A DNA stretch of 33,145 nucleotides from a virus (Duplodnaviria > Heunggongvirae > Uroviricota > Caudoviricetes): IMG/VR virus record IMGVR_UViG_2879742664_000006, one strand, 5' to 3'. Below the pieces are notes generated by a model. The model ran no database searches, had not been told where the DNA came from, and saw only the letters and a program-made list of their open reading frames with translations. Of this stretch, positions 4,999 to 32,331 are shown in pieces. Position 1 is the first letter of the stretch. Each line of letters opens with the position of its first letter. The translations under genes were made by a program, and so were the position numbers.

Positions 4999-6041
4999 TC
5001 AGGATGTGGGCTGGATGTCTAACAGTGCGTAAGGGTTAAAGCGGATCACCTCTTCGCCAAGCCAGTCATTGATGTGCTTCATGGCCTCCATGACGGGCAT
5101 CAGCTCGTTAATTGCGTAAACCCGCGCGGCCTTCTCCACATCACCAAACGCACTTTTTTCACCCGGCATCGCCCCCATCAGTTGCGGCGGAACGCGGTGC
5201 GCAGCCAGCACATCATCACGGGATGCCGCCTTAACATTCATGAACTCATCCTTTGCGGTGATCTGCTGGAACGGCAAAATTTGCACCCCCTCTTTGCCCC
5301 CGTTGGGCGCATGAATGAGCACGTTTTTAAACGCACCACCACCACGCGCACCCTGTAGCGTTTCTTTCAGGGAGTCCATGCTTTCGCGGTTTACCTGCGC
5401 GGCACCGATGTAGATGATGCACCCGGCGTGGGATCCGTTGTCGTAATACAGTTTTCTGAACATGTCCGCCGAATGAGACAGGCTGGCCGAGAGTAATGCG
5501 CCGAGATATTCCGGCATGCCGTAGATTTCCTGGTTAATGTCAGGATTCATCAGGTGACACACTTTGCCTGGGCGAAACTGAAACGCATCCTTGCCATCCT
5601 GCACATACCTCCATGATTCAAGATCGCTTCCGCGTCGCATGTATTTCGCCAGGGCGTGCCGTAATTTAAGCGGTTCGCCGAGCATATTGCTTCGAAGCTC
5701 AAGGAATGCGTTACCGAACACAAACCAGTCCAGCGCCAGCGCCAGCGCCGAGAAATCCTGCCGGGAAAGCAGCGGGTGCGGGATGTAGCAACCGAGCAAT
5801 ACATTGCGCTTAAAATAAAGCGCAGACTGATGCCAGGACGTTTGCCGGGCAGCTCTTGCCAGACCGTACCAGTCCACCGGGGTTTCATACCACCGCCCGT
5901 TATCAGCACAGTACATATTGTCCAGCAGGTCAGGCGATAAGGACCATCAAATGTGAATGCACTGAGCGATGATTCTTTCCTGAGCGCATCAGCGAGATCA
6001 ATGCGTGAACTCATGCGCACTTTTTTATTTTTTCTGCTCAT
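4999..6041 (-). pseudogene. Q: P2 gpQ-like portal protein, interrupted by a 1-bp frameshift near 5917-5946 as sequenced
   Basis: N-terminus MSRKNKKVRMSSRIDLADALRKESSLSAFTFDGP in one frame (track ORF 5550..6041), remainder MYCADNGRWYETPVDWYGL...RFNPYALLDIQPTS in another (4999..5916). Combined length 1043 nt is one short of a multiple of 3. Start overlaps the terminase stop (ATGA). Confidence 0.8.
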
Positions 6042-7792
6042 CAGAACTCCATAACCGTGAAACGCTCGTTTTCTCCTTCGCCGCCAATCGGTTCGTTAAT
6101 GACAGCAAGCATGGTTGCCCACGCAAGGTCGCCGTGGCTGATCCCCCTCGCTCGGTCCGTTTCGTAAGTGATAAAGCCGCCCGGTGTTTTCACCTTACGC
6201 ACGGCGTTAAAGGCCGCGACCAGCTCGCGTTCGGCGCGATCGTATTCCCACCGCCCGGCACGCATTATTTGCAGCATTTTCAGTACCAGCGACCGTTTTG
6301 ATGACAGCGTGAAGGTGTACGGAATAGCGGCAGGGAAAAACCGTTTCACTATCTGATAAACAGCCTCCCCGTTCCCGCCCGTCACATCAATGCCGATGTG
6401 TTCCACGTTGTAGCGACACGTGAACTCTTCAATGACTCTGGCCTGTTCTTCAAACTCCAGCCCCTGAACGCGTCGCGTCTCCACCGTTCGAAAACGGCCA
6501 CCAGGAACAGACGGAGGAACCACCACGGACACAGCGCCGCTGTCGCCGTTGCCACTGCTGCCGTTTGCGTCATACCCAATCCATACCGGACGATTCCCCA
6601 TCGGGCGGGGAGCAAAAGGTTTCCAGTCTTTCCAGTCGTCGTATCCGTCAACGCCGCAGCCAATCAGGATATTCAGGTTAAATGCCGATTCCCCTTCGCG
6701 GACAAACTCACACATATAGAGATTGAGGAACTCGTCTTCGGTGTTTTCATCACGAATTTCGTCGATATCGGTGTGTTTCCAGCCGTGATTAACCACATCT
6801 TCCAGCGTGACAATTTGCCGCCACGTCCGGTCAGGGCAGATAAGCCCGTTATGCAGCGTTTTCCAGTCCACAGAAAAACGCTGGCGTTTATGCGAGGCCT
6901 TTTTCTCGTTCCAGCGGTCGCCGTTCCAGTAGGCGTATGCCTCGTGCGTTTCGGTGGATGGCGTGGAGAAGTAGGTGCGCCGCAGTCCGCTGAGGGTTGC
7001 CATAGCGCCAGCCACCTTGCGCAGTTCAGCAAAGCGACTGACCCAGAAAAATTCATCAAAATAAAAATTGCCCGTATAGGACTGTGCCGACGCAGCAGAA
7101 GTGCCGAGAAAATGCAGCTCTGCGCCGTTGGAGAGGATGATTTTATCGCCCCCTTTCAGCTCCACATCAACTTCAGCCGCGGCCTTCTGAATAATGCTTT
7201 TAAACTGGAACGCCTGACGACGCGACGCAGACAAAAAAATCTGGTTACGCTGGTAAGGTTGCGCCACATCGTCACGCAGCGCCATCAGCAGTGCTTCCTG
7301 TGCAAAATACCAGGTCGCCCCAATCTGTCGGGATTTCAGGATCATCCTGTTACGTATCCCGGCTTCCCTGCAAAGGGTCAGGGAGTCAAACCAGCCCCGC
7401 TGATGCCACTCCAGCCTGCTGATGATTTTTTCCCGCAGTGCGGCAATCTGTTCCGGCGTGAAATGATTTTTGAGTTTTTTCGCCCGGCCTTTCTTTCCTG
7501 CGGCCATCACATCCGGCTGGCCATCATGCAGCTTTTTAAGCTGCCGGGTCAGCAGGTCTATTTCCTTAAAGTCACCGCCTGTTTTATTCTGTTTTTCAGT
7601 AAGCTGGATGAGGCGCGCATCGATGGACTGCGTGACACGCTGCCCGGGTGGCGTTTCATCCCACTGGTCACGTTTTTTCCACGCATAAATCGTGTTCGGG
7701 TTTATTCCCATCAGACGTGATATTTCTGCGGGCGGATAACCCTGCCAGTAAAGTTGCCGCGCACGCTGGCGCACAAAAGCGTCCTGAATCAT
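6041..7792 (-). CDS. P: P2 gpP-like terminase large (ATPase) subunit
   Basis: 583-aa intact ORF upstream of the portal gene and divergent from the scaffold gene, the P2 P-Q arrangement. Confidence 0.95.
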   Translation of the reverse strand: MIQDAFVRQRARQLYWQGYPPAEISRLMGINPNTIYAWKKRDQWDETPPGQRVTQSIDARLIQLTEKQNKTGGDFKEIDLLTRQLKKLHDGQPDVMAAGKKGRAKKLKNHFTPEQIAALREKIISRLEWHQRGWFDSLTLCREAGIRNRMILKSRQIGATWYFAQEALLMALRDDVAQPYQRNQIFLSASRRQAFQFKSIIQKAAAEVDVELKGGDKIILSNGAELHFLGTSAASAQSYTGNFYFDEFFWVSRFAELRKVAGAMATLSGLRRTYFSTPSTETHEAYAYWNGDRWNEKKASHKRQRFSVDWKTLHNGLICPDRTWRQIVTLEDVVNHGWKHTDIDEIRDENTEDEFLNLYMCEFVREGESAFNLNILIGCGVDGYDDWKDWKPFAPRPMGNRPVWIGYDANGSSGNGDSGAVSVVVPPSVPGGRFRTVETRRVQGLEFEEQARVIEEFTCRYNVEHIGIDVTGGNGEAVYQIVKRFFPAAIPYTFTLSSKRSLVLKMLQIMRAGRWEYDRAERELVAAFNAVRKVKTPGGFITYETDRARGISHGDLAWATMLAVINEPIGGEGENERFTVMEF

Positions 7793-7946
7793 TGCTCCCC
7801 CTGAGTAATTACAGGAAGATTACCCGCGCGCGAAACTGTTCTCCTTAACCCTCTGTTCTGGCCGTTTTCTTACAACAAAAGCCCTTTGTATCAGCCTGTT
7901 ACGCTTTGCCATCATGACTGAAGAACCAGTCAGAGGGGCAAAAACT
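7793..7946. promoter_or_regulatory. Divergent intergenic region between terminase P (-) and scaffold O (+); expected site of late promoters
   Basis: 154-bp non-coding gap between divergent operons; RBS gagggg 8 nt before the O start. No activator-binding site could be confirmed by eye. Confidence 0.3.
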
Positions 7947-8806: not shown

Positions 8807-9858
8807 ATGAATCTGGTGATGTCAGATATTACCCGCAACAAGCTGGGTTGCTATATGGCGCAGCAGGTGTCGCTTAATAATATCCCGGTATCTGCACTGG
8901 TGTCGCGATTTACCGTGGAACCCGCGGTGCAGCAGCGTTTTGAAAACGCCTCAAAGGAAAGTACCGAATTTACGAAAAAAATAACGTGATCGGCGTGACC
9001 GACCAGAAAGGCGAAAAAATCCTCCTGGATACCACAGGACCGATTGCGCGCACGAATACCAGTTATGACGGCACAAAACGCCGTAACCCGAATAACGTGG
9101 TTGATCTGAAAAACCGCAAATATCAGTGTGAACAGGTGAACTACGACACGTTTATTTCGTATCCGCAGCTTGATGCCTGGTCGGCACACCCTGATTTTCA
9201 GTCCCGCATCAGCGCACAGATTGCCCGACAGGTGGCGCTTGACCGCATCATGATCGGTTTCAACGGCACGTCTCACGCGGATGAGTCCAACTTCAGCACC
9301 AACAAGCTGCTTCAGGACGTTAACGTGGGCTGGCTGGAGCACATCAGAACCGACGCCAGCGAACGCGTTATGAATGACGTGACGCTGACCTCCCGCAACA
9401 TGGACAACACCGTGGCGCACGCGGGTAAGTATGCGAACGCTGATGCACTGGTACAGGACGCGCGTTCATCCCTGCTAGATGAATGGCACAAGGAAGCTGA
9501 CGACCTCGTGGTGATTATGGGGCGCAACCTGTTTAACTCGCTGCGTCTGCCCGTGCTGAACAGCATCAGCGGCCAGAATCCCAATGCGGAATTACTCGCC
9601 GGGCAGCTCATCCTGTCATCGCGCACCATTGGCGGGCTGGGCGTGTTCCTTGCGCCGTTCTTCCCGGATGCAACGATGCTGATCACCTCGTTCAACAACC
9701 TGTCGATTTACTGGCAGAAAGGTTCAATGCGTCGCCTGATGAAAGACGAGCCGGAATACAACCGCATCGCCACCTACCAGTCCATCAATGACGCTTATGT
9801 CGTTGAAGACTATGGCAAGTGCGCGATGGTTACTGGCCTGAAGTTCGCCGACAGCTAA
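8807..9858 (+). pseudogene. N: P2 gpN-like major capsid protein, frameshifted in an A-run at about 8975-8986 as sequenced
   Basis: Track ORFs 8807..8989 (ends ...ESTEFTKKIT*) and 8986..9858 (...VIGVTDQKGEKILLDTTGPIA...) are both capsid-like and adjacent frames; adding one base in acgaaaaaaataacg gives continuous ...TEFTKKINVIGVTDQ.... Confidence 0.85.
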
Positions 9859-9903: not shown

Positions 9904-10650
9904 ATGATTACTCCTGCACAACAACACTGGCAGAACGTGATGGCACAGCGCGCAGGCCGGGCGAATGAAGGCGTGGACCACGCCGCGCGTACCGCGCATG
10001 AAGAGGTGCTGTATCGTCTGCGTCTGGCACAGGCCCGGCTTAAGGGCGTACAGGCCAGAAGCGCGAAAGCCGCCATCAAAAAAGAGTTGTTGCCGGATTT
10101 TTCCGGCTGGATTGAGGGAACGCTGGAGGCTGACGGCGGGCAGCAGGATGAAGTGATTGCCACGCTGATGGTGTGGGCGATTGACTGTGGCGATCTTCCG
10201 CTTGCGCTGCGTATCGGCGCGTATGTAGTCCGTCACAACCTCATCATGCCGGATAACTTTGGCCGTACTGCTGCCACGGTACTGACCGAAGAAATCTGTA
10301 ATCCGGTACTGACGCAGGCCGGGACGGATGCCGACGCGGATTTGTCCGCCTTTATCGAACCACTGGACACCCTCCGGGAGATTGTCACCGACCAGGACAT
10401 GCCGGACGAAGTGCGCGCCAAATTATGCAAAGCGTGCGCCTTTGCCCGCCGTGGCCTGAGTGATGCGGACAGCATGGCCCTGTCACTGAAGCTGCTGCGC
10501 GAAGCAATGCACCTGAACCCGAACGCAGGTGTGAAACGCGAGATTGCAACCCTTTCCCGCGCCCTGAAAAAAGCCGATTCCGCAGCCGAACCAGAAGACG
10601 CCAGCGCACAGCAGGCGCAGGACGAAAGCAGCAAAAAGCAGCAAAAGTAA
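9904..10650 (+). CDS. M: P2 gpM-like terminase small (endonuclease) subunit
   Basis: 248-aa ORF following the capsid gene, as in P2. Confidence 0.9.
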   Translation: MITPAQQHWQNVMAQRAGRANEGVDHAARTAHEEVLYRLRLAQARLKGVQARSAKAAIKKELLPDFSGWIEGTLEADGGQQDEVIATLMVWAIDCGDLPLALRIGAYVVRHNLIMPDNFGRTAATVLTEEICNPVLTQAGTDADADLSAFIEPLDTLREIVTDQDMPDEVRAKLCKACAFARRGLSDADSMALSLKLLREAMHLNPNAGVKREIATLSRALKKADSAAEPEDASAQQAQDESSKKQQK

Positions 10651-14442: not shown

Positions 14443-14789
14443 CAACCCGCTACACAGGAATGAACCCGGACGGAACGGGAAACCTGAACGATATGGAGCA
14501 CCTGAAACAGTCAGTCAGGGACATCCTGACCACCCCGCTGGCAAGCCGGGTTATGCGACGGGAATATGGCAGCCTTGTGCCTGATTTGATTGACGAACCC
14601 ATGAATAACACCACGCGTCTGCAATGCATGAGTGCTGCCGTGATTGCGCTGACACGATGGGAACCCCGCATTGCCCTGGACGCTATCGACGTTGTCTGGA
14701 AGGCAGGAGGCCGCGCCGGGGTGACGCTGTCGGGCACTGTCATGCAGACCATGCAGAATGTTGAATTAACCATCACGCTGAGGGAGTAA
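14439..14789 (+). CDS. W: P2 gpW-like baseplate wedge protein (gp25-like)
   Basis: 116-aa ORF, GTG start overlapping the V stop; position between V and J. Confidence 0.85.
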   Translation: MTTRYTGMNPDGTGNLNDMEHLKQSVRDILTTPLASRVMRREYGSLVPDLIDEPMNNTTRLQCMSAAVIALTRWEPRIALDAIDVVWKAGGRAGVTLSGTVMQTMQNVELTITLRE

Positions 14790-14792
14790 ATC

Positions 14793-15689
14793 ATGCCTGC
14801 CGTTGACCTTTCACAGTTACCGGAACCCGCCATCATCGCGGAGCCTGACTTTGAGGCAATTCTGGCTGACACAAAGGCCATGATGATTGCGTCCTATCCC
14901 GCCGAACAGCGTGAAGCCGTTTCCGCCGCGCTGGAGCTGGAATCGGAACCCCTTAACGTTATCGCTCAAACCATGTCGTTTCGTGAAATGCTGTTACGCC
15001 AGCGGGTCAATGAGGGTGCACGCGCCTGCATGCTAAGCCACAGCGCCGGGACAGACCTGGACAACCTCGCGGGCAATATGAACACAAAGCGCCTGGTTAT
15101 CACTCCGGCAACGGATACCACCGATGCAGTGATGGAAAGTGACACCTCGCTGAGACTACGGGCGCAACGGGCATATGACGGTCTGAGTGTTGCTGGCCCG
15201 TCAGGTGCATACGAGTATTTTGCACGCAGCGCCAGCGGTCTGGTACGCGATGCGCGGGCCATCAGCCCGTCTCCGGCCAACGTGACGGTTTCCATCCTGT
15301 CCACTGAGGGCGACGGCACAGCAACGGAGGCGTTGCTTAATACCGTTCGCGCCGTTCTGAATGCAGAGGATACCCGCCCGGTGGCCGACCGCCTGACCGT
15401 ACAGAGTGCCAGAATCGTGACATGGCGGCTGAATGCAAAACTGTACTTTTACCCCGGCCCGGAATCCGAACCTATTCTGGCCGCGGCTGAATCGTCGTTC
15501 AGGAAGTGGCTGGCTGAGCAGGGGCTTATCGGTCAGGACGTGGCGTTGTCCGCCATTGCTGCCGCACTGCATGTGCACGGTGTGCAACGCGTGGAGATAA
15601 TCGAACCCACACAGAATATGGCCATCAGCGACATACAGGCGGCGCGCTGTGCGTCATTCACCATCAGCGAAGGTGGACGCAATGAGTAA
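14793..15689 (+). CDS. J: P2 gpJ-like baseplate assembly protein
   Basis: 298-aa ORF in the V-W-J-I order. Confidence 0.9.
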   Translation: MPAVDLSQLPEPAIIAEPDFEAILADTKAMMIASYPAEQREAVSAALELESEPLNVIAQTMSFREMLLRQRVNEGARACMLSHSAGTDLDNLAGNMNTKRLVITPATDTTDAVMESDTSLRLRAQRAYDGLSVAGPSGAYEYFARSASGLVRDARAISPSPANVTVSILSTEGDGTATEALLNTVRAVLNAEDTRPVADRLTVQSARIVTWRLNAKLYFYPGPESEPILAAAESSFRKWLAEQGLIGQDVALSAIAAALHVHGVQRVEIIEPTQNMAISDIQAARCASFTISEGGRNE

Positions 15690-16212
15690 TTCGTTGTTAC
15701 CACCATCAGCCAGCAATTTCATGCGTTGTGCCGAAGCCGTCGGAACACGCATTACAGACATTCCGGTAGACCTCAACACGCTGTGGTCGCCGGACACCTG
15801 CCCGGTGCATCTGCTGCCTTATCTCGCCTGGGCGTTTTCCGTTGACCGCTGGGATCGCAACTGGCCGGAAGAGACAAAGCGACAGGTTATTCGTGATGCA
15901 TGGCTGATACACCGACACAAAGGGACCATCAGCGCACTGCGCCGGGCCATTGAGCCGCTGGGATACCTCATTCGCGTGTCTGAGTGGTGGGAGTTCGGCG
16001 GAGAACCGGGAACATTTACCGTTGAAGTCGGCACGCTGGACAGTGGCGTGACGGAGGAAATGTATCTGGAAATGGAGCGGTTGATTGCTGATGCCCGCCC
16101 GGTCAGCCGCCACATGACAGGGCTGAATATCATTCAGGAAATTCCGGGGGATATTTTCGCAGCGGCGGCAACTTATGACGGTGAAGTTATTACCATTTAT
16201 CCAGGCGATTAA
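15682..16212 (+). CDS. I: P2 gpI-like baseplate/tail protein
   Basis: MSNSLLPPSASNFMRCAEAVGTRITDIPVDL...; start ATG 15682 overlaps the J stop. Confidence 0.85.
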   Translation: MSNSLLPPSASNFMRCAEAVGTRITDIPVDLNTLWSPDTCPVHLLPYLAWAFSVDRWDRNWPEETKRQVIRDAWLIHRHKGTISALRRAIEPLGYLIRVSEWWEFGGEPGTFTVEVGTLDSGVTEEMYLEMERLIADARPVSRHMTGLNIIQEIPGDIFAAAATYDGEVITIYPGD

Positions 16213-16214
16213 GC

Positions 16215-20837: not shown

Positions 20838-20858
20838 TCTGACCATTAGCGGTTTTTG
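20827..20858. terminator. Rho-independent terminator hairpin shared by invertase (+) and gpU (-)
   Basis: aaaaccgctaat-ctgacc-attagcggttttt; includes the invertase stop codon. Confidence 0.55.
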
Positions 20859-20865
20859 TGTTAAA

Positions 20866-21360
20866 TCAGAACAGCCCTTTAACTGAACTGGCCGCGCTGT
20901 TAAGAGATGATGTCACCTTATCTTTGAAGCCGGACAGCATATCACTGAACGATGAGGATTGCAGGCGCTCCCGCAAATCCTCATCACAGCGTTCAAGAGT
21001 CAGTGAAAATTCTATCTTTTTCGCCTTACCGTAGCGATCAAACTCGGAGCGGGTCGTATTCGTTTCAGTCAGGACATACATGCCGTAAATCTGCCCGACG
21101 CCATCAATCAAAGGCCAGGGTCGTCCTGTATACGCCTGCGTAGTCAGCAGCGACAGCGACACTTCGCCACCTGTAATTTCAGGATAAAGCACACCAGAAA
21201 GAACGATGCGATCATCACCTGCACCGATATACTGCCAGCTTGCTGAACGGTTAACGCGTTCATTTTTCACATGCCGCCAGCTTTTGTTTTGCTGTAACTG
21301 CTGATGCGGCAGCGTGCGCAGCTCAAAAACAAACATGCCGTAGATCATCATCATGGCCAT
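20866..21360 (-). CDS. U: P2 gpU-like tail protein
   Basis: 164-aa MAMMMIYGMFVFELRTLPHQQLQQNKSWRH...; immediately downstream of the tape measure gene on the minus strand. Confidence 0.85.
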   Translation of the reverse strand: MAMMMIYGMFVFELRTLPHQQLQQNKSWRHVKNERVNRSASWQYIGAGDDRIVLSGVLYPEITGGEVSLSLLTTQAYTGRPWPLIDGVGQIYGMYVLTETNTTRSEFDRYGKAKKIEFSLTLERCDEDLRERLQSSSFSDMLSGFKDKVTSSLNSAASSVKGLF

Positions 21361-21366
21361 GACTCC

Positions 21367-24174
21367 TCAATCTTTATCGTAAAAACAGCCACGCCCGGCA
21401 CGGGCGCGCCGTTCCATTTCTGCCCTGACCATTTCACCGACCAGTTTCGCCAGTTCGCGGGGATTCTGCGTAACAACGTTATGCAGATGAACATGAATTT
21501 CACCACCAAATCCGAAGGCAACAGGCTCCCGGTTACGGGAAGTTACAGGAACTGATGCCACTGGAGATCGTATAGCCTCCGCCACCGGGCGGGAGCTGGC
21601 CGCAACAACAGGGACCAGCGCCGGAGGCAGCGGAGCCGGAACCACGGGTGTGATATTAATTGCGGGGGCAGGCTTACTGACCTGCGCAATCTTCCGCTCC
21701 TGCCACTCCCCACGAACAGCAAGTGCTCGGGGCAGGTTTTTAAAGACAATATCGCCGGGGCCAATGCGTTTTTTCGTCTCCTCAACCAGCTTACCTGTGT
21801 TATCAGCAATTTTGCTGAGTCTGCGCAGCGTACCGGTATTGCTGTCTGTGAGCGGTTTATTGTCTTTGGGGTTATCACCTCCGGTGCCATTGCCATTTTC
21901 CACAGGCTTCGGCGGATTGATTTTCGCCAGATCCCCCTGAAGCAAGGCAACCTTGTCCTGAAGAATGGCCGCACGCTGTGCGTCTTCGATTTTCTTGCGC
22001 GCCCTTTCCGCTTCATCCGGAAGCACACCAAGCTTTTCAAGTATCCACGCCAGCGTATCCAGCAACATTTTTGCAGGTGTCAGAACAAGTTGTAACGCAC
22101 CGCCAAGAACGTTACCGAATATCTCGCCAGCACTGGTACATTTATCCAGAGTTTCCTTGCTGGACTCCATCGGTGACAGCAGCGATTTAAACCAGTTAAA
22201 CACCTGGCTGATCCCACTCCCGATTGCGTCAAAAACAGGACCAAACCGTTCAAAGGTTTCGCGCAACGGGGTCAGCCTTTCCATAATCCCGCTGAACACC
22301 CCGGCAAAAAATGCCCTGATGGGATCCCAGTATTTCCAGATAAGAACGGCAGCTCCGGCAAGCGCAGCCACGATAAGACCAACCGGACTGAACAACGCCC
22401 CGATAGCGCCTCCCAGTAAAGAAACGGAACCCGTCACCATTCCCCATAGTGCTGGCAGAACCCTGACAGCATTCATTGATCCGGTCAGGAGGGAAAAACC
22501 AAGACGCAGTTTTGCCAGCGGGCCAGCAAGCACACCAATAGCCAGCGACAACGAGCCAACCGTTGCAGTCATTGCCAGCAATGCACCGCCTGCAATCAGT
22601 AGCTGGCGCGTCAGTGCGGGATGGGCCTGCGCCAGCGCCGTCACCTTTGATACCACACGCGTGAGCCACTGCGTGACAGAACGCAGCGGACCGTCAATCA
22701 GATCTGCAATGCGGATGCGCAACCCTTCCCATGCACTGCTGAGTGATTTCAGATCGCCGTCAAGGTTGTTGGCCATAACCTTTGCCGTGCGTTCAGCCTC
22801 ACCGCGCGCGCCTTCAAGTTCTTTTCTCAGTTTGGGTAAGGAGCCGTCACCTGCCGCATCAACGAGGGCCATAAATGATGTGAAAGCCTCTTCTCCGGCA
22901 ATGTCCTTAAAGAACGATACCCGGTCAACTTCCCCGTATTTGCGGGTAGCTTTATAAAGGTCAGCCAGCACATCCTCCATCGGGCGCATTTTGCCCCCGG
23001 CATCCGAGACAGACACGCCAAGCTCTTTCAGCGCCTCTGCTGCCGCCTTTGGCGGTGATGCCAGACGAGCCAGGCTGGCACGCATTGCCGTACCAGCATC
23101 ACTCCCCCTGATACCCATATTCGCCAGCACGCCCGCCATCGCTGCGGCCTGCTCCAGAGATATTCCCAGCTTACCCGCCACCGGACCTGCATATTTCATG
23201 GTTTCACCCAGTGCGCGAAGGTCAGTGTTGGTACGGGTAAACGCTGCGGTGAGTGTGTCGCCGACCCGGTCCATCTGGTCAGCAGAAAGACCGAACTGCG
23301 TCAGAATATTTGAGCCAATATCCGCCGTCTCACCGAGGTCCATACCGCCAGCCGTTGCCATGCTCAGTACGCCAGGGAGCGCAGCCTGAATGGCCTGTGG
23401 TGTAAAGCCAGCCATTGCAAGAAATGCCTGTCCACTGGCGGCATCGCCTGCGGTGAACTGCGTTTCAGAGCCAAGTTTTAACGCCTGCTCACGCAGCGCC
23501 TTAAACTGCGGGCTGTTCTGGTCGATTCGCGTCAGTGCCTGAACGCGGGACATCTCTTTGCCGAACCCGATCGCAGGCTGCAAAAAACGCCCGGCAGCAT
23601 AGCCGCCCGCCGCTGCCGCACCAATTGCCAGCGCACCACCTGTTTTCAGTTTTCCCGCTGTTTCCTGCGCGCGCGAATACCGCTCACGCGCCCGTGTTAC
23701 ACGCGCAAGCGCCTGCCGTTCGCGTTCAAGCTGGTTGTTGTACTGTTCGGTGCGTCTGATGGCCTGCTGGATGGTGTTATCGCTGCCTGTCAGGGAAATG
23801 CCGTGGCGTTTCAGCTCTCCGCCAAGCTCCCGCATTTTCTGAATTTCCCGTGTGCGCGATTCATTCAGGCGTTCAAGCCGGGTGCTTAACTGCTGCATCA
23901 GCTTTTGTTGTTTTTCGCTGAGCACTGTACCCGTGCGTTGTAACTGATTAAGGGCGTTAAGCTGGCGTCGTGCTTTCACGATGCCAGCATCCGCTTTACT
24001 GACAGCGTCACGGGCGCGCTCAAATGATCGCGCCTGACGCTCGAGATTTTTGATCGCCCCCTGCGTTCGCTGGATGGAGTCACCAAACTGCCCCATCAGG
24101 CGGCGGGCGTTTTCGGCAGGCCGGGTCAGCCTGTCAACGGCGCTGAAAGCGACCCGGATATCAAGAGTCTTCAT
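21367..24174 (-). CDS. T: Tail tape measure protein (P2 gpT-like)
   Basis: ~935-aa ORF, coiled-coil N-terminal third, Gly/Ala-rich hydrophobic middle; start placed at the Met of MKTLDIRV (RBS ggga); track ORF extends to 24210. Confidence 0.9.
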   Translation of the reverse strand: MKTLDIRVAFSAVDRLTRPAENARRLMGQFGDSIQRTQGAIKNLERQARSFERARDAVSKADAGIVKARRQLNALNQLQRTGTVLSEKQQKLMQQLSTRLERLNESRTREIQKMRELGGELKRHGISLTGSDNTIQQAIRRTEQYNNQLERERQALARVTRARERYSRAQETAGKLKTGGALAIGAAAAGGYAAGRFLQPAIGFGKEMSRVQALTRIDQNSPQFKALREQALKLGSETQFTAGDAASGQAFLAMAGFTPQAIQAALPGVLSMATAGGMDLGETADIGSNILTQFGLSADQMDRVGDTLTAAFTRTNTDLRALGETMKYAGPVAGKLGISLEQAAAMAGVLANMGIRGSDAGTAMRASLARLASPPKAAAEALKELGVSVSDAGGKMRPMEDVLADLYKATRKYGEVDRVSFFKDIAGEEAFTSFMALVDAAGDGSLPKLRKELEGARGEAERTAKVMANNLDGDLKSLSSAWEGLRIRIADLIDGPLRSVTQWLTRVVSKVTALAQAHPALTRQLLIAGGALLAMTATVGSLSLAIGVLAGPLAKLRLGFSLLTGSMNAVRVLPALWGMVTGSVSLLGGAIGALFSPVGLIVAALAGAAVLIWKYWDPIRAFFAGVFSGIMERLTPLRETFERFGPVFDAIGSGISQVFNWFKSLLSPMESSKETLDKCTSAGEIFGNVLGGALQLVLTPAKMLLDTLAWILEKLGVLPDEAERARKKIEDAQRAAILQDKVALLQGDLAKINPPKPVENGNGTGGDNPKDNKPLTDSNTGTLRRLSKIADNTGKLVEETKKRIGPGDIVFKNLPRALAVRGEWQERKIAQVSKPAPAINITPVVPAPLPPALVPVVAASSRPVAEAIRSPVASVPVTSRNREPVAFGFGGEIHVHLHNVVTQNPRELAKLVGEMVRAEMERRARAGRGCFYDKD

Positions 24175-24211
24175 TGTCTGCATTCCCGCTACGAAGTGCC
24201 GCCCGCTCACG

Positions 24212-24699
24212 TCAGCTAACCACTTCGCCGGGCGTCATCATGAAGATTTCGGCGGGCGACCAGTTAAAAATGGCGGCAATATCCGCCACCAGATCTTCGA
24301 TGTGCTCAAAGCACACCAGGGTGATTACGCTGCCGTCTCCTGCACGCTCTTCGCGCCAGAGTCTGGCTCGCTCATAAAATTTACAGCCACAGCGCACAAC
24401 TGAATAAAATCGCGTGACGACATTTTTTTAATCATCACTTCATCCAGTCGTGGCGAGGTCACGCGAGGCAACAGCGTGAACATGGTATCCGCTTTCAGAT
24501 TCAGCACATCAGACAGCGACAGACCACGCAGGGATCCAGCCTGCTCAATAGCCCCGGTGATCTCCACATACGTGATTTTTTCGCCACCACGCTCAATTGG
24601 TCGGGTCAGTTTTACGCCACGTTCGACAGCCATATCCTCAACTGCCGTCACATTATCCGCCACGGTGTTATTCCGGGTTTCAGTATCGATGTCTTTCAT
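24212..24699 (-). CDS. gpE+E'-like frameshift product (programmed -1 frameshift, putative)
   Basis: A -1 frame (...KFYERARLWREERAGDGSVITL...PGEVVS*) is open from a slippery-like heptamer A_AAT_TTT (plus-strand 24375-24381) in E through to a stop at 24212, 2 nt before the T start, the conserved chaperone arrangement. Confidence 0.55.
24325..24699 (-). CDS. E: Tail assembly chaperone gpE-like
   Basis: 124-aa ORF with strong RBS aaggaga 7 nt before ATG 24699; lies between tail tube and tape measure genes. Confidence 0.75.
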   Translation of the reverse strand: MKDIDTETRNNTVADNVTAVEDMAVERGVKLTRPIERGGEKITYVEITGAIEQAGSLRGLSLSDVLNLKADTMFTLLPRVTSPRLDEVMIKKMSSRDFIQLCAVAVNFMSEPDSGAKSVQETAA

Positions 24700-24754
24700 C
24701 TGTTGTCTCCTTTTCAGTCAGAGGCGACGCACTGCGCCGCCAGCATATTACTTA

Positions 24755-25265
24755 TCAGCCAAGCCCAAGCGCGGAACGGATGCGATCGGGCACAATGTCC
24801 TTGCCGTCCTTCCGGTAAATGAAGTTCAGCAGGTCAATCTCCCACAACGGGCGATCGTTAACACTCAGCTTGTAGTAGGTGTTTTAATGGCGTAAGTGTG
24901 TGATGTGGCTTCGCCCTGTTTGGCTTCCCCCATATCAATTTCCGTCACACGTCCGCGCATTTCGACTTCATACAGGTCGCTTTCTGCATCGGTGTAGTAT
25001 TCACCCGCAAAACGCAGCAGCGTGCCGTCAATCGTGCCGCCATACTTAAGGAACAGCTCACGAACTGCGCCCCCATGACAAAGCTCGCATCAAGCGCGGA
25101 GTCGTCCAGACCGAGATCAATACTTACCGCACCCATCATGCCACCACCCCGGTAGCTGTCGGTTTTGCGCGTCAGCTTAGGCAGAGTGACGGACGTCACA
25201 TTACCCACTTCGTTTTCACCATCCACAAACAGCGTAAAAAAGCGAAGATGTTTTGGCACAGCCAT
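24755..25265 (-). pseudogene. FII: P2 gpFII-like tail tube protein with two 1-bp frameshifts as sequenced
   Basis: N-terminal part in track ORF 24945..25265 (MAVPKHLRFFTLFVDGENEVGNVTSVTLPKLTRKTDSYRGGG...); tube-like sequence continues in two other frames (...GGAVRELFLKYGGTIDGTLLRFAGEYY..., then ...YYKLSVNDRPLWEIDLLNFIYRKDGKDIVPDRIRSALGLG*). Frame changes at a C5 run (25070-25074) and a T4 run (24883-24886). Confidence 0.8.
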
Positions 25266-26449
25266 CAGGCACCTCCCAGCACCGCAAATGCGGGTTCAAA
25301 GTATTCATCAGTAAACGTCTGGTAAAGCTCCATGTCTTCCAGTGGCGGAACGGGCGTATATTTGTAGCGAATACGCACACGTCCCTGACGTAAATCCGTG
25401 GTGCTGTTATCCACCACGTCATACCAGCACTCCGCGCCAATCAGTTTCCCGGCAGTCACCAGTGAATCCAGTTTTGCCCTGATGGCACTGATAACATCCT
25501 TCACATTCGCAGGCGTCAGTGGACTGTCGATGGTTTCAAACTGCGCTTCCGCAATTGAATCAGCCAGCACCTGTGCGGTTCGGGTATACACCTCAAAGAT
25601 GTAGGCGTTCGTTTCCGGTGTGCGGTTACCCCAGAAGCGGAACCCGTTGCGACGAATAATGGTCGTGATTTCTTTGTTGTTGAGGCTGTTGGCATCGCTG
25701 TCTTCGGCCTGCAACGACCAGAACACATGCCTCGACATCCCCAGCACATTTTTAACCGGAACGTTGGACAGCGATTTGTGCCATCCCTGTTCATGGTCAA
25801 TGTACGCACGAAGGCCGCACGCATAGGCAGGCGCGGGGAACGTTTCGTTTTTGCCATTTTTCGGGTTGTAGGCGATGAAGTCCGGCCATAAGAGCATCAC
25901 CTCACGTTCGTTGAATTTCTGGCGGTAGGTAATTGCCTCGGCCATCGTGTTACAGCCATGACATGAGGCATACACAAACGCGCGCAGTTTATCTGCAATC
26001 ACGCACAGGGATTTTGTTACCGCCTCCGTGTCCAGCTCCGGCGCGGCCAGAATACGCGGACGGTATCCGATGCTTTCATCCTGCTCTGCAACAAGCAGCG
26101 CATACATCCCCGTATAGCTGCCGTCATCCTCAGAACCACCGATAACCAGTTGATCCTGCGTCTTTCCGTCTTCTTCTTTGTGTTCAGCCACGCGAACGAC
26201 GATCACCTTTGTGCTCACCTGGTCTGCGATGGCCTTAAGCGCACGATAAAGCGTCCCCGTTGTCCCGCATTTTCCCAGCACGTCATTGACGCGGGTCAGC
26301 AGTGTGGGCTTGTTCAGCGGGAACAGCTTCGCGTCCGCATCATCCGCCGTTGCCACGATACCGATAACGCTGGAATCAACATCGTTAATCGCTGTTACCA
26401 GGTCGGTATTCTCCGTAACACGGGCACCATGAAAACGAGTTTCACTCAT
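25265..26449 (-). CDS. FI: P2 gpFI-like tail sheath protein
   Basis: 394-aa intact ORF; stop overlaps the tail tube start. Confidence 0.9.
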   Translation of the reverse strand: MSETRFHGARVTENTDLVTAINDVDSSVIGIVATADDADAKLFPLNKPTLLTRVNDVLGKCGTTGTLYRALKAIADQVSTKVIVVRVAEHKEEDGKTQDQLVIGGSEDDGSYTGMYALLVAEQDESIGYRPRILAAPELDTEAVTKSLCVIADKLRAFVYASCHGCNTMAEAITYRQKFNEREVMLLWPDFIAYNPKNGKNETFPAPAYACGLRAYIDHEQGWHKSLSNVPVKNVLGMSRHVFWSLQAEDSDANSLNNKEITTIIRRNGFRFWGNRTPETNAYIFEVYTRTAQVLADSIAEAQFETIDSPLTPANVKDVISAIRAKLDSLVTAGKLIGAECWYDVVDNSTTDLRQGRVRIRYKYTPVPPLEDMELYQTFTDEYFEPAFAVLGGA

Positions 26450-26606
26450 AGCTTCAGCCCCTTGTATCCGTTAAATGATTCAGCAACAATCATCACCCAC
26501 CACGCGCGTAATCTCACCCCTGCGCCGTTCTCCCGCCACGGCGACAACAAAAAGCAGTAACCCCCTCCGCACGCACATGCGACCATGCCGCACAGGGAGG
26601 GAGCAG

Positions 26607-27716
26607 ATGACCGACACCACCATGCAATTGCTCAGTCAGGGCACGGCCCCCGTGAAAATGCCGGATTTTGATATTCTCTCGGAGGGTAAAACGCTGTCAG
26701 GCGTGGCGGAGCGCCTGATGAGCCTGTAACTGACCGACAACCGGGGATTTGAGGCGGACCAGCTCACCATCACGCTGGATGATGCGGATGGTCAGTTGCA
26801 GCTACCGCCACGGGGCGCGCGTCTGACGGTTCTCATTGGCTGGAAAGGGGAACCGCTGACAGAAAAAGGCACTTACATTGTTGATGAAATCGCTCACGAA
26901 GGACCGCCGGACAGGCTGACTGTTTCAGCCAGAAGCGCAGATTTTCGGGATGAATTTAACGTTAAACGTGAGGTGTCCTGGCATGATGTGACCGTTGAGC
27001 GTGTGGTATCCGCCATCACTCATCGGTACGGTCTGAAACCGCAAATCAGCGAAATGCTGATGGATATCGAAATCGACCACGCCGACCAGACCGAAGAAAG
27101 CGACATGTCCTTTCTTACGCGCATGGCGGAAATGCTGGGAGCAATCGCCACGGTAAAAAGCGGCAATCTGTTATTCATCATGCCAGGTGGTGGCGTGAAC
27201 GCACAGGGGCAGCCGTTGCCCTCGTTCGCCATTACACGCAGCAGCGGCGATCGCCATCAGTTCCGCATTGCTGACCGCGAGGCGTATACGGGGGTACGCG
27301 CCTACTGGCTTGATCTTAATTACGGGAAAAAGAAAAAAGTCAGCGTGAAACGCCGCAAACCGCCAAAACCCAAAAAGGAGAAAAGCAGCAGTCGGGAAGG
27401 CGACTATATGGAAGGTGCGGAAGGCAACGTGTTTGTGTTACGCAAGACTTATCAGAACGAGCAGGCAGCAAGACGCGCAGCGGCGGCAAAGTGGCAGCAG
27501 CTACAACGCGGAGCCGCATCATTCTCCATCACGCTGGCGCGTGGTCGTGCAGAACTCTATCCCGAAATGCATGGCACAGTGACAGGCTTTAAAAGCGAGA
27601 TTGATTATCAGGACTGGACTATTGCAAAAGCCGAGCACACCATTGATAACAGCGGCTTTACCACGCAGCTTGAACTTGAAGCAAAAATCCCGGAATGGAT
27701 AGCAGAAACAGAATAA
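26607..27716 (+). pseudogene. D: P2 gpD-like tail protein with an in-frame TAA stop at codon 41 (26727-26729)
   Basis: ATG 26607 with RBS agggaggg; track ORFs 26475..26729 and 26796..27716 are in the same frame, separated only by TAA; D-like sequence reads continuously across it (...GVAERLMSL*LTDNRGFEADQLTITLDDADGQLQLPPRGARLTVLIGWKGEPL...). Confidence 0.8.
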
Positions 27717-27964
27717 ATCTCTTAAAAATATTATTTTTGAGATGTGCTTCTACACTGACAGTAAGAACAAAAGATAATGTATCAGCCCACTAGATGTCAG
27801 AGGTTGGGGCATCAACCAGATGCTAACAATAATACGGATGTTTTTCCCACATGACAGAGGAAGTCAAGTATAATCTTCACAGTCCATCCCGTCCAAGGGA
27901 ATATGACTCAATAGTAAAAGTTCCAGTTTAGTTAGTAGACCCACACTTTATAGAAGAGTAATTC

Positions 27965-30900
27965 ATGATTGGACAATTTTTAAGTGCAACAGAGATTTTA
28001 GCAAAGAACTATGTTCGTAATAAAATGGTTAAAAATCCATTTTATTCGAATTTAAAATGGAATTTTATTGAAAAAAACATCATAAGATTAACATCCTCAC
28101 CGGTTAAATCAGTACTTTGCATATCAGCTTTTTCATTTGTACTACTTTATGTTGGATATTTAAACGAATTATTTATAAAAAATAATCTTTTACATTATTT
28201 CCCGTTTAGGCATTCATTAACCGAATGGCAAACAACCATTTTAAGTGGCCAATTGACAATTATTGGTATTGTATACCCCCTTGTTATAGGTTTAGTAAGT
28301 GTCTTATTCCAAAAAAAGGCAGATAGAAAAATAGCCCAAACTGCTTATCAGCGTTACTCAGGATTCATGCTTGCTGGACTCAGCGGGCTTTTCTTATCAG
28401 GATTTATACTTCTCAGTGTACTAATTAAAACTGTCTTTGGAAGTTATCTTTATGGTATAGCTTGTCTAATCAGCATATTATGGCTTTTGATAAACATAGT
28501 TCTTTCTATTTGGTTCTTTATCGTGAGTCTTGAAATTCTTGATGATGTAAAACGGCAAATAATTATAAAGCGATACATTGCCTTCGAAATAGTAATGCCC
28601 CATATTTGTAACAAAATATCAGCCAAGCTTAGGTTATACCCTATCTATCAAAAACATAACTATTCAAATTTAGAAATCACGCAAGCCGATTACAAAGGAG
28701 AATACATATCTGTGGCTAGCAGTTATTCTAAGGAAGATGAGTTAAGTTTATATCACCGTCCTTTTCAACTTACTCTTAATCTTATTAATTACCAACTAAA
28801 AAAGAAGAATCATTTTGCGTCATTTGTCATTGGTGATAATCGTACAAAAGAAACAGAATCCACGGGTAAGATACTTTTTAGCGTTAAAAATATCAAACCA
28901 GACAGCTTATTAATAAAAATACTTAAGCAATGTTTTTATAGGGCTCCGATTAAAGGAGGAGATTTTTCCGTAAGTCTTACAATGCAGGCTATAACAGCAG
29001 ATACGTATATGTATCTGCGGGATTCTGATCTCATTAGTTTTGACAATGCTATCTCTGCATTAATTAATAACTTTAATAATCTCTGCGATTTGTATTTTTT
29101 TCAAGATGATAATACCAACAATAACTTCTTACTGATCACTACAGAATTATTTGAACGGAGTTTTCAATATGAGTTTTCAGATGAAGTTTATAAAATATCA
29201 AATAATTCCATGGATAAAATTAATCTTTCTGAAAGATTTTTTGAATTATGTCTTTGGAGCGGAGTGCGTATTATCAATAATAGAAAACATCTTATCAGCA
29301 ATGAACTTTGTATCTATATGGGAATTACTCGTTCACAATGGTCAATATTAACAGAATGGTTCCGAAACAACCAATCACTCTTAAATGCCTCGCTTCGTTC
29401 ACGTTATAATCGTATATTAAGAACCTATATCACTGTTTGGGAGCAATATCAAGAAAGCATAAACTTTCGTTTCTGCAATACAGAGAATTCAGATTTATTT
29501 GAATTATTTTGCAAAACGCAACTACAAGAACTTCCATCGATGATTATTGATGCAACACAGACTCGCGATCCTTCTACTATTGATACAGCCGTCGATCTTA
29601 TTAACCGATGGCAGCACTCAATGAATATTGACAGCCATTCGGTAGAAAAATACAGTTACAAAGGCCAGCTTTTTAACCCGGGTTTTTTCATATCCAAAAA
29701 ACTAAACTTCAATTCAGACAGAGAGTGGTTCAATATTGCCATCATAAATGCGTTGACTGACATGCGTATATGCACATGTCTTTATCTGACATCAAGAATC
29801 AATACTTCTGACAAACTAATGACACATTACATTAAACTTATTTTAGAGGGTAAACTTATTGACCAAACCGGTGGATATGAAACTCCCACTGAAGAAATTG
29901 ATAATGCAAGCCAACTAATCAAGATATTAATTAGAATCTGCCTGTGGACATGGTCTGAAAATATGGAGCACAATGGGTGGATGAATAGTTTAGCAAGGCG
30001 TTTACGTGACTATGATAAAACAGACATGGTGATGGGCAGAGTTTACAGTAATGTTTTTGACTGTGGATTTATTGATATGGAACAATCATGGGTTCAGCTA
30101 TTATTAATTTTTTCTAACAAGAACGATAGCGTATCAAAAGAAATAAAAGAAGCAATAGAAAACAACTATATAACATATCGTGAGAAGCAACGACTCATTG
30201 GAGTATTATCAAAAATTTGTAACTCCATCGAATACACTAAAATCAAGCTGACTTTAACATTGGACGATCTCCAAACAAAAAAAGAAAACTTAAGAAAGTT
30301 GCTTCAAGAGCATATTAACATGCTAAAGAAAGATCTTGATATGAGACTTCAGGATGCTGCCATAGATGTACATCGACTAGATAGCACTGCACGTAAAACA
30401 TCAGAACATCTTCGTAAACGCATCAAGAAAACGCTCCCTCTTTCACTTTTCAAATCTATTGATTTTAAGCAGGCTAGCGATTGTTTCACAAAACATAAGA
30501 TATCTATTAAGATAGATAAAGAACCGTATGCCGAAGGAATAGAATCCATCCCTTATATCAATGAAGGTGATATTCAAGCAGACTTAATTCTCAAGGACAT
30601 CCAGAGAATAATACTTTCAAATTTATTTAGCACTGGCTGTTCGCAACATACCGTAATAGAAGATTTCAATATGTTGATTGATCACATAAAATCATCTGCT
30701 GACTTGGCTGGCAAACTGGTTCTTGTGATGAGTAAAGAGATCTTTCAGCAATATAATCGTATGCTTTTCGATAATCCCAACCTCAGAGAACTAATGAGAA
30801 AAAATGATGATGGCTCTATGAACATAACTACTGAATCCGGTACCCGTAAGGTTTACTTCTTACCATTTGTTAATCAACCATTTTCTCTTGTGGTAAAGGA

Positions 30901-31084
30901 TAACTACTTCACTAAATTAATTATTAGAGAATATGATAATAATAAGTTAGTAAATGTCACTTCAGAGAATATCAAAAGTGACTCAGATAAATTCAAGCTA
31001 ACTCTTAACTATGAGTTGAATATAGTATTTGAAGGAAACGCTGATTTAAAAATAGCTCACTCGCAAAGAGTGACATCAGAATAA
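27965..31084 (+). CDS. Large membrane-anchored protein of unknown function (1039 aa), AT-rich cargo gene
   Basis: Single uninterrupted ORF, visibly AT-rich (about 17 G+C in the first 60 nt) against GC-rich phage genes; N-terminal hydrophobic helices (residues ~50-190), then ~850 aa with no recognisable motif; possible -10 box TATAAT at 27869-27874. Confidence 0.8.
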   Translation: MIGQFLSATEILAKNYVRNKMVKNPFYSNLKWNFIEKNIIRLTSSPVKSVLCISAFSFVLLYVGYLNELFIKNNLLHYFPFRHSLTEWQTTILSGQLTIIGIVYPLVIGLVSVLFQKKADRKIAQTAYQRYSGFMLAGLSGLFLSGFILLSVLIKTVFGSYLYGIACLISILWLLINIVLSIWFFIVSLEILDDVKRQIIIKRYIAFEIVMPHICNKISAKLRLYPIYQKHNYSNLEITQADYKGEYISVASSYSKEDELSLYHRPFQLTLNLINYQLKKKNHFASFVIGDNRTKETESTGKILFSVKNIKPDSLLIKILKQCFYRAPIKGGDFSVSLTMQAITADTYMYLRDSDLISFDNAISALINNFNNLCDLYFFQDDNTNNNFLLITTELFERSFQYEFSDEVYKISNNSMDKINLSERFFELCLWSGVRIINNRKHLISNELCIYMGITRSQWSILTEWFRNNQSLLNASLRSRYNRILRTYITVWEQYQESINFRFCNTENSDLFELFCKTQLQELPSMIIDATQTRDPSTIDTAVDLINRWQHSMNIDSHSVEKYSYKGQLFNPGFFISKKLNFNSDREWFNIAIINALTDMRICTCLYLTSRINTSDKLMTHYIKLILEGKLIDQTGGYETPTEEIDNASQLIKILIRICLWTWSENMEHNGWMNSLARRLRDYDKTDMVMGRVYSNVFDCGFIDMEQSWVQLLLIFSNKNDSVSKEIKEAIENNYITYREKQRLIGVLSKICNSIEYTKIKLTLTLDDLQTKKENLRKLLQEHINMLKKDLDMRLQDAAIDVHRLDSTARKTSEHLRKRIKKTLPLSLFKSIDFKQASDCFTKHKISIKIDKEPYAEGIESIPYINEGDIQADLILKDIQRIILSNLFSTGCSQHTVIEDFNMLIDHIKSSADLAGKLVLVMSKEIFQQYNRMLFDNPNLRELMRKNDDGSMNITTESGTRKVYFLPFVNQPFSLVVKDNYFTKLIIREYDNNKLVNVTSENIKSDSDKFKLTLNYELNIVFEGNADLKIAHSQRVTSE

Positions 31085-31219
31085 TATCTTTGACGGCGCT
31101 CCTTAGAGTGCCGTTCGTTTATTAACTAATGCTAAAAATCATTATATAGAGAAAGTCATGTTTAAATCTTAGAGAATACAACCTAGAATAGTGTAAGCAC
31201 TACAATAAGAGAGGTCGCT

Positions 31220-31415
31220 ATGTTCCGTTGTCCGCTTTGTGGCGCATCTGCCCGTATCCGCACCAGTCGTCCGGAAAATGATTCAAACACCGTGAGACAA
31301 AAGTATTATCAGTGTAACAATCTAGAATGCGGCGTATGTTTCTCAACACTGGAAGCCTTCCACAAATTCACTTCAAAGCACGCCTCCCCCATTCACTCAT
31401 CAGAGGGCATCCCGT
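31220..31415 (+). pseudogene. ogr: ogr-like zinc-finger late-gene activator, 3' end split off by IS2 (remaining codons at 32746-32823)
   Basis: MFRCPLCGASARIRTSRPENDSNTVRQKYYQCNNLECGVCF... (CxxC...CxxxxC); the IS2 terminal repeat begins at 31416 inside the frame, which resumes after the IS2 left end as ...PWHELPTSHRGNNQMSLPLPQN*. Confidence 0.8.
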
Positions 31416-31426
31416 TGGATTTGCCC

Positions 31427-32331
31427 CTATATTTCCAGACATCTGTTATCACTTAACCCATTACAAGCCCGCTGCCGCAGATATTCCCGTGGCGAGCGAT
31501 AACCCAGCGCACTATGCGGATGCCATTCGTTATAATGCTCGAACGCCTCTGCAAGGTTCTTTGCTGCCGTTAACCCGTCTGGTTTGGGCATGATACTGAT
31601 GTAGTCACGCTTTATCGTTTTCACGAAGCTCTCTGCTATTCCGTTACTCTCCGGACTCCGCACCGCCGTGTTCTTCGGTTCAAGTCCCAACATCCGGGCG
31701 AACTGGCGTGTTTCATTAGCCCGGTAGCATGAACCATTATCCGTCAGCCACTCCACTGGAGACGACGGAAGATCGTTGCCGAAGCGGCGTTCCACCGCTC
31801 CCAGCATGACGTCCTGTACTGTTTCACTGTTGAAGCCGCCGGTAGTCACCGCCCAGTGCAGTGCCTCACGATCACAGCAGTCCAGCGCGAACGTGACACG
31901 CAGTCTCTCTCCGTTATCACAGCAGAACTCGAACCCGTCAGAGCACCATCGCTGATTGCTTTCTTTCACGGCCACTCTGCCTGTATGTGCCCGTTTCGAT
32001 GGCGGTACAGCAGGTTTTCGTCAAGCAACAGCGCATTCTGGCGCATGATCCGGTAAACACGTTTGGCATTGATCGCAGGCATACCATCAAGTTCTGCCTG
32101 TCTGCGAAGCAGCGCCCATACCCGACGATAACCATACGTGGGCAGCTCTCCGATAACATGGTGTATACGGAGAAGCACATCCGTATCATCAGTGTGACGA
32201 CTGCGGCGGCCATCCATCCAGTCATCGGTTCGTCTGAGAATGACGTGCAACTGCGCACGCGACACCCGGAGACAACGGCTGACTAAGCTTACTCCCCATC
32301 CCCGGGCAATAAGGGCGCGTGCGCTATCCAC
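31427..32331 (-). pseudogene. insD: IS2 transposase OrfB (InsD) with an internal 1-bp frameshift near 32019-32025
   Basis: Split into track ORFs 31966..32331 ([12 protein letters not shown]...[28 protein letters not shown]) and 31427..31975 ([17 protein letters not shown]...); the shifted frame reads [24 protein letters not shown], so one base is missing around cttga(a)cgaaaacc. Confidence 0.8.

Follow-up and report, generated by a model that had tools for sequence, protein, structure and literature searches.

Cryptic ('grounded') prophages of E. coli and Shigella decay by point mutation, insertion of insertion sequences (IS) and deletion, and they are inherited vertically (PMC6379469). Here we analysed a stretch of 33,145 nucleotides, the IMG/VR record IMGVR_UViG_2879742664_000006, which we call the window; it is the late region of a P2-family prophage remnant adjoining hok and ihfA. 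The described remnants DLP12, Rac, Qin and e14 show the same mode of decay, but they are lambdoid, much older and more eroded, whereas the present one is a young remnant of the P2 type. The intact P2-family (Peduovirus-type) prophages of the E. coli strains ETEC4088 and GDSC2BY4G (NZ_CP136025.1) have the same gene order as the window and the same ihfA and pheT neighbours, with 98.6-99.7% identity. Both are wild-type at all sites that are broken in the window, and GDSC2BY4G also retains the replication gene A and a full-length parM. Compared with these intact copies, the window carries seven small lesions, a nonsense codon, an IS2 in the late activator gene ogr and a nest of IS elements in place of the left arm.

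The remnant has close counterparts in Shigella. S. boydii Sb227 (CP000036) and other cluster-1 Shigella carry identical capsid, tail tube (FII, both deletions), D, ogr::IS2 and IS911/parM lesions at 99.8% identity. Sb227 also has the terminase duplication and the inserted T in the alternate tail-fibre chaperone, and its truncated genes were deposited as ABB66010.1 and ABB66008.1. Unlike the window, it has an intact portal gene and an intact IS2 transposase. What the lineage of the window has beyond Sb227 is a 10-bp (base pair) deletion in the portal gene, a 12-bp intergenic deletion, a single-base deletion in the IS2 gene insD and the expansion of a hexamer. We are nearly certain that the lesions of the window reflect genuine stepwise decay, in which the P2-family prophage died in the ancestor of the S. 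boydii/S. flexneri serotype 6 cluster and its neutral mutations were inherited vertically.

The disabling lesions are shared and nested

The window matches CP026811.1 at 100% identity and without gaps over both fetched halves (L012 and L022; fetched loci are given by L numbers). A published table assigns this record to the chromosome of strain 64-5500 of Shigella flexneri serotype 6, and serotype 6 groups with S. boydii, apart from other S. flexneri (PMC9455713). The guess of a Shigella host, made in a first-pass annotation from the letters alone, was therefore right. The same annotation had noticed a cluster of frameshifts in the phage and IS genes and had weighed a decaying prophage in an IS-rich genome against systematic homopolymer error, proposing a comparison with the same prophage in close relatives as a check. 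We made this comparison in two ways. A base-level allele table was compiled for 20 fetched Shigella loci from 15 assemblies, and exact-sequence look-ups were done with proteins that exist only when the lesion is present.

All frameshifts recur in independent assemblies, and every disrupting lesion is common to at least two other assemblies. Six lesions were found in 10/10 covering loci, including Sb227 CP000036, and form a first tier that is present in every Shigella copy examined: the capsid deletion, the two FII deletions, the Ser41 to TAA change in D, the IS2 insertion in ogr, and the IS911/parM junction with the loss of the replication and early genes. The second tier, confined to one sub-clade that includes Sb227, consists of the chaperone insertion and an IS2 target duplication shortened by one C. 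The duplication of 10 bp in the terminase gene is polymorphic too, but its distribution does not follow this tier. The third tier, which the window has in common with three other complete genomes, comprises the portal deletion, the 12-bp deletion at 4565 and a further loss of the left arm beside an IS3-family element. The insD deletion and the hexamer expansion belong to the strain or sub-lineage level.

The same lesions lie at the same chromosomal site in related strains, as seen in the allele table and in the ihfA/pheT flank; in the source record, the approximately 2 kb beyond the window hold an intact ihfA and a partial pheT. Such shared and nested lesions are what vertical inheritance of a decaying prophage predicts, and the arguments of the first-pass annotation from the IS2 in ogr and the TAA in D hold. 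Altogether, small disabling lesions affect 6 of about 27 phage genes, and three IS events add to them. This number of lesions is far beyond chance. Essential genes are inactivated: besides the disrupted portal, capsid, tube and D genes and the split ogr, gene A has been lost altogether. Most open reading frames (ORFs) of the remnant are still full length.

Lesions of the head genes

The portal gene (Q) is a pseudogene at 5002-6041 on the minus strand. Its lesion had been counted among six 1-bp indels; what we found is a 10-bp deletion at 5927/5928, by which GGTCATGCCC was lost between GGTCA direct repeats, while the remaining five 1-bp changes (capsid, FII twice, chaperone and insD) stood. The portal deletion also occurs in L014, L018 (FDAARGOS_714, CP055124.1, serotype 6) and L019, the three other complete genomes of the third tier. 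In the allele without the hexamer expansion, its 303-aa (amino acid) product is present on 288 contigs, including those of S. flexneri CCH060 and CDC 796-83; among the carriers only FDAARGOS_714 is confirmed as serotype 6, the serotypes of CCH060 and CDC 796-83 being unverified. The second change in the gene is an in-frame expansion of the 6-bp unit CCAGCG at 5730-5735 from two to three copies, the only indel private to the source assembly. The unit (5724-5741) is present in 2, 3 or 4 copies among strains, and the 3-copy state is private here. Exact look-ups with the 163-aa and 305-aa products had pointed to a portal lesion unique to one contig. We rejected this as an artefact of the private hexamer, because the hexamer-free allele is on 288 contigs.

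The major capsid gene (N), a pseudogene at 8807-9858 on the plus strand, has a net loss of one base at about 8978-8982. The ancestral AAAAGAATT was changed to AAAAAAAT, which is a base loss and a substitution beside an A-run. The allele is identical in 10/10 Shigella loci including Sb227, and in exact look-ups the capsid fragments of 290 aa and 60 aa were found on 690 and 636 contigs, respectively.

The small terminase gene (M, 9904-10650, plus strand) contains a 10-bp tandem duplication of AAAGCAGCAA at 10625-10634, which had been overlooked before. It shifts the last approximately 25 codons and yields a protein of 248 aa instead of 266 aa; the 248-aa product is present on 436 contigs including Sb227. 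The copy number of AAAGCAGCAA (10615-10634) is one in L015, two in eight loci and three in L023. Other apparent indels in this part of the prophage were discarded as Shigella changes. The T-run differences at 8801 and 10796 are in the same state in the window, L002, ETEC4088 and all Shigella copies, with L001 as the odd one, and the apparent indels at 14969-14976 relative to L001 form a divergent patch with a net length change of zero.

Lesions of the tail genes and the invertible segment

The tail tube gene (FII) is a pseudogene at 24758-25265 on the minus strand with two deletions, C6 to C5 at 25070 and T5 to T4 at 24882 (plus-strand notation). These are the only true homopolymer-length changes in the set of lesions. 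Both alleles are identical in 10/10 Shigella loci that cover the right half, including Sb227. The 106-aa frameshift product was found on 953 contigs in 1068 index blocks, mostly contigs of 5-20 kb, and it includes ABB66010.1 of S. boydii Sb227. We considered whether the two frameshifts compensate each other; both are deletions with a net change of -2, and stops occur in all three frames.

The D gene (gpD, pseudogene, 26607-27716, plus strand) has a TCA to TAA nonsense change at 26727-26729, which turns Ser41 into a stop and confirms the TAA that had been read there previously. It is common to 10/10 Shigella loci, and the 306-aa ORF downstream of it is present on 670 contigs.

In the alternate tail-fibre chaperone a T is inserted at 19284 (AAATG to AATATG) in codon 4; the site adjoins a T6 run, the length of which is not changed. 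The allele was observed in 13 of 22 loci including Sb227, and the 187-aa product on 506 contigs. In this region (19284-19373, minus strand) the insertion removes the native start, but the 187-aa ORF begins at an ATG that lies in frame further upstream, within the end of the alternate fibre gene; RefSeq names this ORF 'tail fiber assembly protein [Shigella]'. The insertion may therefore not be a null allele.

The chaperone lies in the invertible tail-fibre segment (17475-20187), which contains the C-termini of H and two chaperones and is bounded by inverted repeats. The segment is in the opposite orientation in L006, L008, L011, L014, L016, L017 and L021. Next to it is an intact serine invertase of 199 aa (20238-20837, plus strand) with the Pfam domains Resolvase and HTH_7, which is 99.5% identical to the 'recombinase family protein' of L001. 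The intact invertase, the inverted repeats and the presence of both orientations among near-identical strains are the features of an invertible switch of the Gin/Cin/Pin type. The segment has flipped between strains that are only a few single-nucleotide polymorphisms apart, for example L014 with 3 substitutions in 17.5 kb. Since it flipped between such near-identical strains, the serine invertase of this dead prophage is evidently still active.

Insertion of IS2 into ogr

The late activator gene ogr (31220-32814, plus strand) is split into a 5' part (31220-31415) and a 3' part (32746-32814) by an IS2 of 1330 bp on the minus strand (31416-32745), as the first-pass annotation had proposed. IS2 is about 1331 bp long, with terminal inverted repeats, orfA and orfB joined by a programmed -1 frameshift, and a 5-bp target duplication. 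The copy in ogr is 99.5% identical to annotated IS2. Its left junction is the same in 8/10 loci, and in L008 and L013 a single base within the IS2 end is different. At the right junction we found a target duplication of 5 bp (CCCGT) or 4 bp (CCGT) in nine loci; L009 has no syntenic right flank at IS2/ogr. The CCCGT duplication is intact in L004, L005, L007, L010 and L013. In the window (32746-32750), Sb227, L008 and L011 one C is lost on the right side, which leaves CCGT and makes a lineage marker that co-segregates with the chaperone insertion.

The IS2 itself is damaged as well. A C is deleted at 32020 within CGCTC, which is not a homopolymer, and this deletion frameshifts insD. The same deletion is present in L008 and L011 (an NCTC assembly), and the frameshift-specific 121-aa product was found on 2 contigs, those of the source and of S. 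flexneri CCH060. With this extra -1 shift in orfB, the IS2 transposase is predicted to be non-functional.

Comparison with the intact sibling points to relaxed selection

None of the lesions is present in the intact relatives L001 and L002, in which the lesioned genes have full-length annotations. The polarity of the changes can be read from E. coli ETEC4088 (L024, NZ_CP122629.1), which has the same prophage at the same site with the hok, ihfA and pheT flank at 99.5-99.7% identity and is in the wild-type state at every lesion site. Between this copy and the window we counted 78 substitutions, some 70 of which lie away from the two crossover sites of the inversion, and 7 indel events (+6, -10, -1, +10, +1, -1 and -1), which were assigned to the Shigella copy. 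This gives an indel to substitution ratio of roughly 1:10, and about one indel per ten substitutions is the rate of unselected E. coli DNA. Among the coding changes relative to ETEC4088, 38 are nonsynonymous and 23 synonymous, with a ratio of nonsynonymous to synonymous rates (pN/pS) of 0.50. Two comparisons of intact copies with each other gave counts of 70:193 and 42:198 and a pN/pS of 0.11 and 0.07 (Fisher p = 3e-7 and 2e-11). The excess fits relaxed purifying selection.

The ETEC4088 record has two peculiarities of annotation. Its D gene (L024 21910-23019) gives a full 369-aa translation, although the PGAP annotation covers no more than a C-terminal piece of 266 aa. The lysB gene (L024 ~7527-7931) is marked as a pseudogene and has a C5 run where the window has C6 (12618); either the gene is lesioned in ETEC4088 or the record has an assembly error.

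Stepwise decay of the prophage

The lesions can be arranged into a course of events. The prophage very probably inserted itself next to hok/ihfA in the ancestor of the S. boydii/S. flexneri-6 cluster, where one early knock-out would have turned the element into neutral DNA. Loss of Ogr, loss of the replication genes or loss of any one structural gene would be sufficient alone to kill the phage. The first knock-out may have been ogr::IS2, the IS911-associated loss of replication genes or a structural lesion. The small lesions probably arose when replication slipped at homopolymers, at short direct repeats and at tandem units. The signatures of slippage are homopolymers, the 5-bp direct repeat, tandem 6-bp and 10-bp units (2-4 and 1-3 copies, respectively) and the 12-bp direct-repeat deletion. 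Once selection for phage function was gone, the erosion would have been fixed by drift in small, IS-expanded Shigella populations.

Some observations weigh against this account of genuine decay. The in-frame hexamer at 5730-5735 is private to the source assembly and has no independent verification. The insD deletion is absent from L009, otherwise the nearest draft, and L009 leaves synteny exactly at IS2. The distribution of this deletion (L008, L011, L012 and CCH060, not L009) is slightly incongruent with that of the portal deletion. The IS2 of L009 may be a collapsed consensus; gene conversion of IS2 is the alternative. About 2.1 kb (20188-22300) are without a near-identical relative and lie outside the reach of the search for private indels described below. 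The platform of CP026811.1, which we believe to be PacBio, is unconfirmed, and the comparison rests on assembled sequences instead of raw reads. Finally, pN/pS is inflated between very close sequences by slightly deleterious polymorphism, and the value for the window comes from only 61 coding changes.

Alternative explanations

Between D and ogr lies an intact cargo ORF of 1039 aa (27965-31084, plus strand) with 32% GC (guanine and cytosine) and a hydrophobic N-terminal region. We take this position to be a cargo or defence hotspot of P2-like phages. The ORF is 99.6% identical in amino acids to the GDSC2BY4G copy without gaps and is also present in ETEC4088. PGAP labels it 'MFS transporter', and we found no match for it in Pfam, PADLOC, PHROGs, NCBIfam or the PDB. 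It raises the possibility of a selective domestication, in which useful parts (the cargo gene, the lysis cassette, the invertase and hok) were kept and the lesions disarm only virion and regulatory functions. In line with this, the cargo ORF, holin/endolysin/LysB, the invertase and hok are all intact, the remnant is kept on hundreds of contigs of Shigella assemblies, and the invertible segment still flips between near-identical strains. However, most of the sequence consists of structural and packaging genes, and lesions confined to them are what chance would be expected to produce. With about 7 indels in 27 kb, some 0.8 would be expected in the 3.1-kb cargo gene, which means that its intactness is not significant. 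The cargo gene also differs from that of ETEC4088 by 5 nonsynonymous changes and 1 synonymous change and gives no sign of purifying selection, and it has no family or defence-system match. We therefore regard selective domestication as improbable. It is likewise doubtful that the remnant is kept for a host benefit of the predicted membrane-anchored 1039-aa protein, for example as a new anti-phage defence. Under the domestication reading, the active invertase, the intact lysis genes and hok could contribute to such a benefit, and if the reading were true, the lesion pattern would mean that a prophage with a cargo under selection had been disarmed.

The other of the two readings between which the first-pass annotation had not chosen, a systematic error of sequencing or assembly by which long-read consensus errors would have broken genes that are really intact, is refuted for the frameshifts of the window. 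The idea had some grounds. Two lesions are homopolymer shortenings, the source appears from its accession series and strain naming to be linked to a long-read-only project, and the sister assembly CP026731.1 of the same series contains many such errors. But every 1-bp indel is also found in the assemblies of other strains, including Sb227, which we presume to be a Sanger shotgun sequence of 2005, as well as NCTC and FDAARGOS assemblies, and the products occur on hundreds of mostly short contigs. The index blocks are mostly contigs of 5-20 kb, as is usual when short-read assemblies break at IS copies. Relative to L014, L018, L019, L009 and L011, the window has 2-16 substitutions; where the number is larger, roughly half of them fall at inversion crossover sites. 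In the stretches that these relatives cover, we found no private 1-bp indel of the source assembly.

The types of the lesions speak against such an error as well. The description of the indels as mostly homopolymeric was overstated: two of the five 1-bp lesions change the length of a homopolymer, and three are without any run-length change. When all single-base indels are counted, 2/6 are changes in runs of at least 4 bases. The 150 runs of at least 5 bases in the prophage are otherwise unaltered. The 27 such runs in the cargo gene served as an internal control for homopolymer errors, and none is altered. The indels are thus neither private to one assembly nor confined to homopolymer runs. Among the remaining lesions are a deletion of 10 bp at a microhomology, a tandem duplication of 10 bp, a substitution that creates a nonsense codon and insertions of IS elements, none of which is an error of homopolymer chemistry.

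CP026731.1 (L008/L017) shows what long-read errors look like in the same region. In roughly 18 kb (window 14500-31450) it has ~18 private 1-bp deletions, all inside homopolymers, by which W, J, H, T, the cargo gene and both chaperones are split. Such a pattern is the classic signature of an unpolished long-read assembly, and the record probably needs polishing. These 1-bp changes split ORFs as well, but they are private, all of them are deletions in runs, and they are scattered over every gene, whereas the lesions of the window are shared across strains and projects and include non-run and multi-base events.

That phase-variable contingency loci or programmed recoding keep the phage conditionally functional is just as hard to believe, for although the 10-bp unit varies between 1 and 3 copies and the hexamer between 2 and 4 among strains, the FII, capsid and D alleles are invariant in all Shigella copies without any switching, the two separate -1 shifts in FII are beyond rescue by a single recoding event, and no switching could restore a phage in which ogr is split and the replication and early genes, together with nearly all of the integrase in this strain, are physically absent.

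Layout of the remnant and loss of the left arm

From left to right, the late genes are arranged as portal Q, terminase P, scaffold O, capsid N, small terminase M, L, X, holin Y and endolysin K, followed by lysB/C, R, S, V, W, J, I, H, G and the invertible tail-fibre segment with its invertase. Downstream are U, T, E, FII, FI, D, the low-GC cargo gene, ogr and hok. This is the late-gene synteny of the P2 family (Peduoviridae type): 36 annotated reference proteins are collinear with the window at 93-100% identity (tblastn), and the Pfam families Phage_cap_P2, Phage_GPD, Ogr_Delta, P2_Phage_GpR and Phage_P2_GpU were seen. A complete early region (int, C, cox, B and A) is not present, and IS elements occupy positions 1-2944 instead. 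Since the early genes are replaced by IS elements, this is a remnant and not a functional member of the P2 family.

The IS nest, which replaces the left arm from int to the N-terminal half of parM and had escaped the first-pass annotation, consists of three IS3-family elements: a complete one that is IS629-like, an IS2 end cut by IS911, and a complete IS911. The first element (1-1312, plus strand; orfA 56-382, orfB 379-1269) forms the left edge of the nest and matches, at 97.3% identity, an element of L002 that is annotated as an IS3-family transposase; we presume that it is IS629-like. Its junction at 1312 is common only to L014, L019 and L022. The IS2 end fragment (1431-1695, minus strand) is 265 bp long, codes for the C-terminus of InsD and is 99.6% identical to positions 1-265 of the IS2 copy. 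The IS911 (1696-2944, plus strand, 1249 bp), annotated 'IS3-like element IS911 family transposase', has terminal repeats and adjoins codon 119 of parM, and neither the replication gene A nor the early region has survived. The 10/10 Shigella loci that cover the left half have an identical IS911/parM junction.

Upstream of the window, only a 45-aa scrap of the integrase remains in the source record (L022). L015 and L023 retain int, repressor and cox-like genes, and the left arm of Sb227 is ~330 bp longer than that of the window. The comparison with L015 and L023 shows that the left arm was lost step by step in IS-associated deletions. The surviving early or hotspot genes are the C-terminal remnant of parM (2945-3547), a ParR-like stability gene (3555-3863) and an ead/Ea22-like gene (3930-4520), all on the plus strand. 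Beyond them, at position 4565, the 12-bp intergenic deletion removed AATAGTGCACAA between TGCACAA repeats; it is found only in the carriers of the portal deletion (L014, L018, L019 and the source).

Significance

IS expansion and the accumulation of pseudogenes are well documented in Shigella, and the remnant is an already known kind of event, a standard defective prophage that underwent ordinary decay in an IS-rich genome. Beyond routine are only the orphan 1039-aa cargo ORF and the still-active invertase in a dead prophage. The two genomes of the same accession series offer a side-by-side test, in which real decay is shared, of mixed type and consistent with phylogeny, and artefact is private, consists of deletions only and lies within runs. 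The frameshifts of the window are biology and not artefact, so the genes should be annotated as pseudogenes, which can be used to mark lineages. From the nesting of the lesions, the separation of S. flexneri 6 from its S. boydii-like relatives can be ordered.

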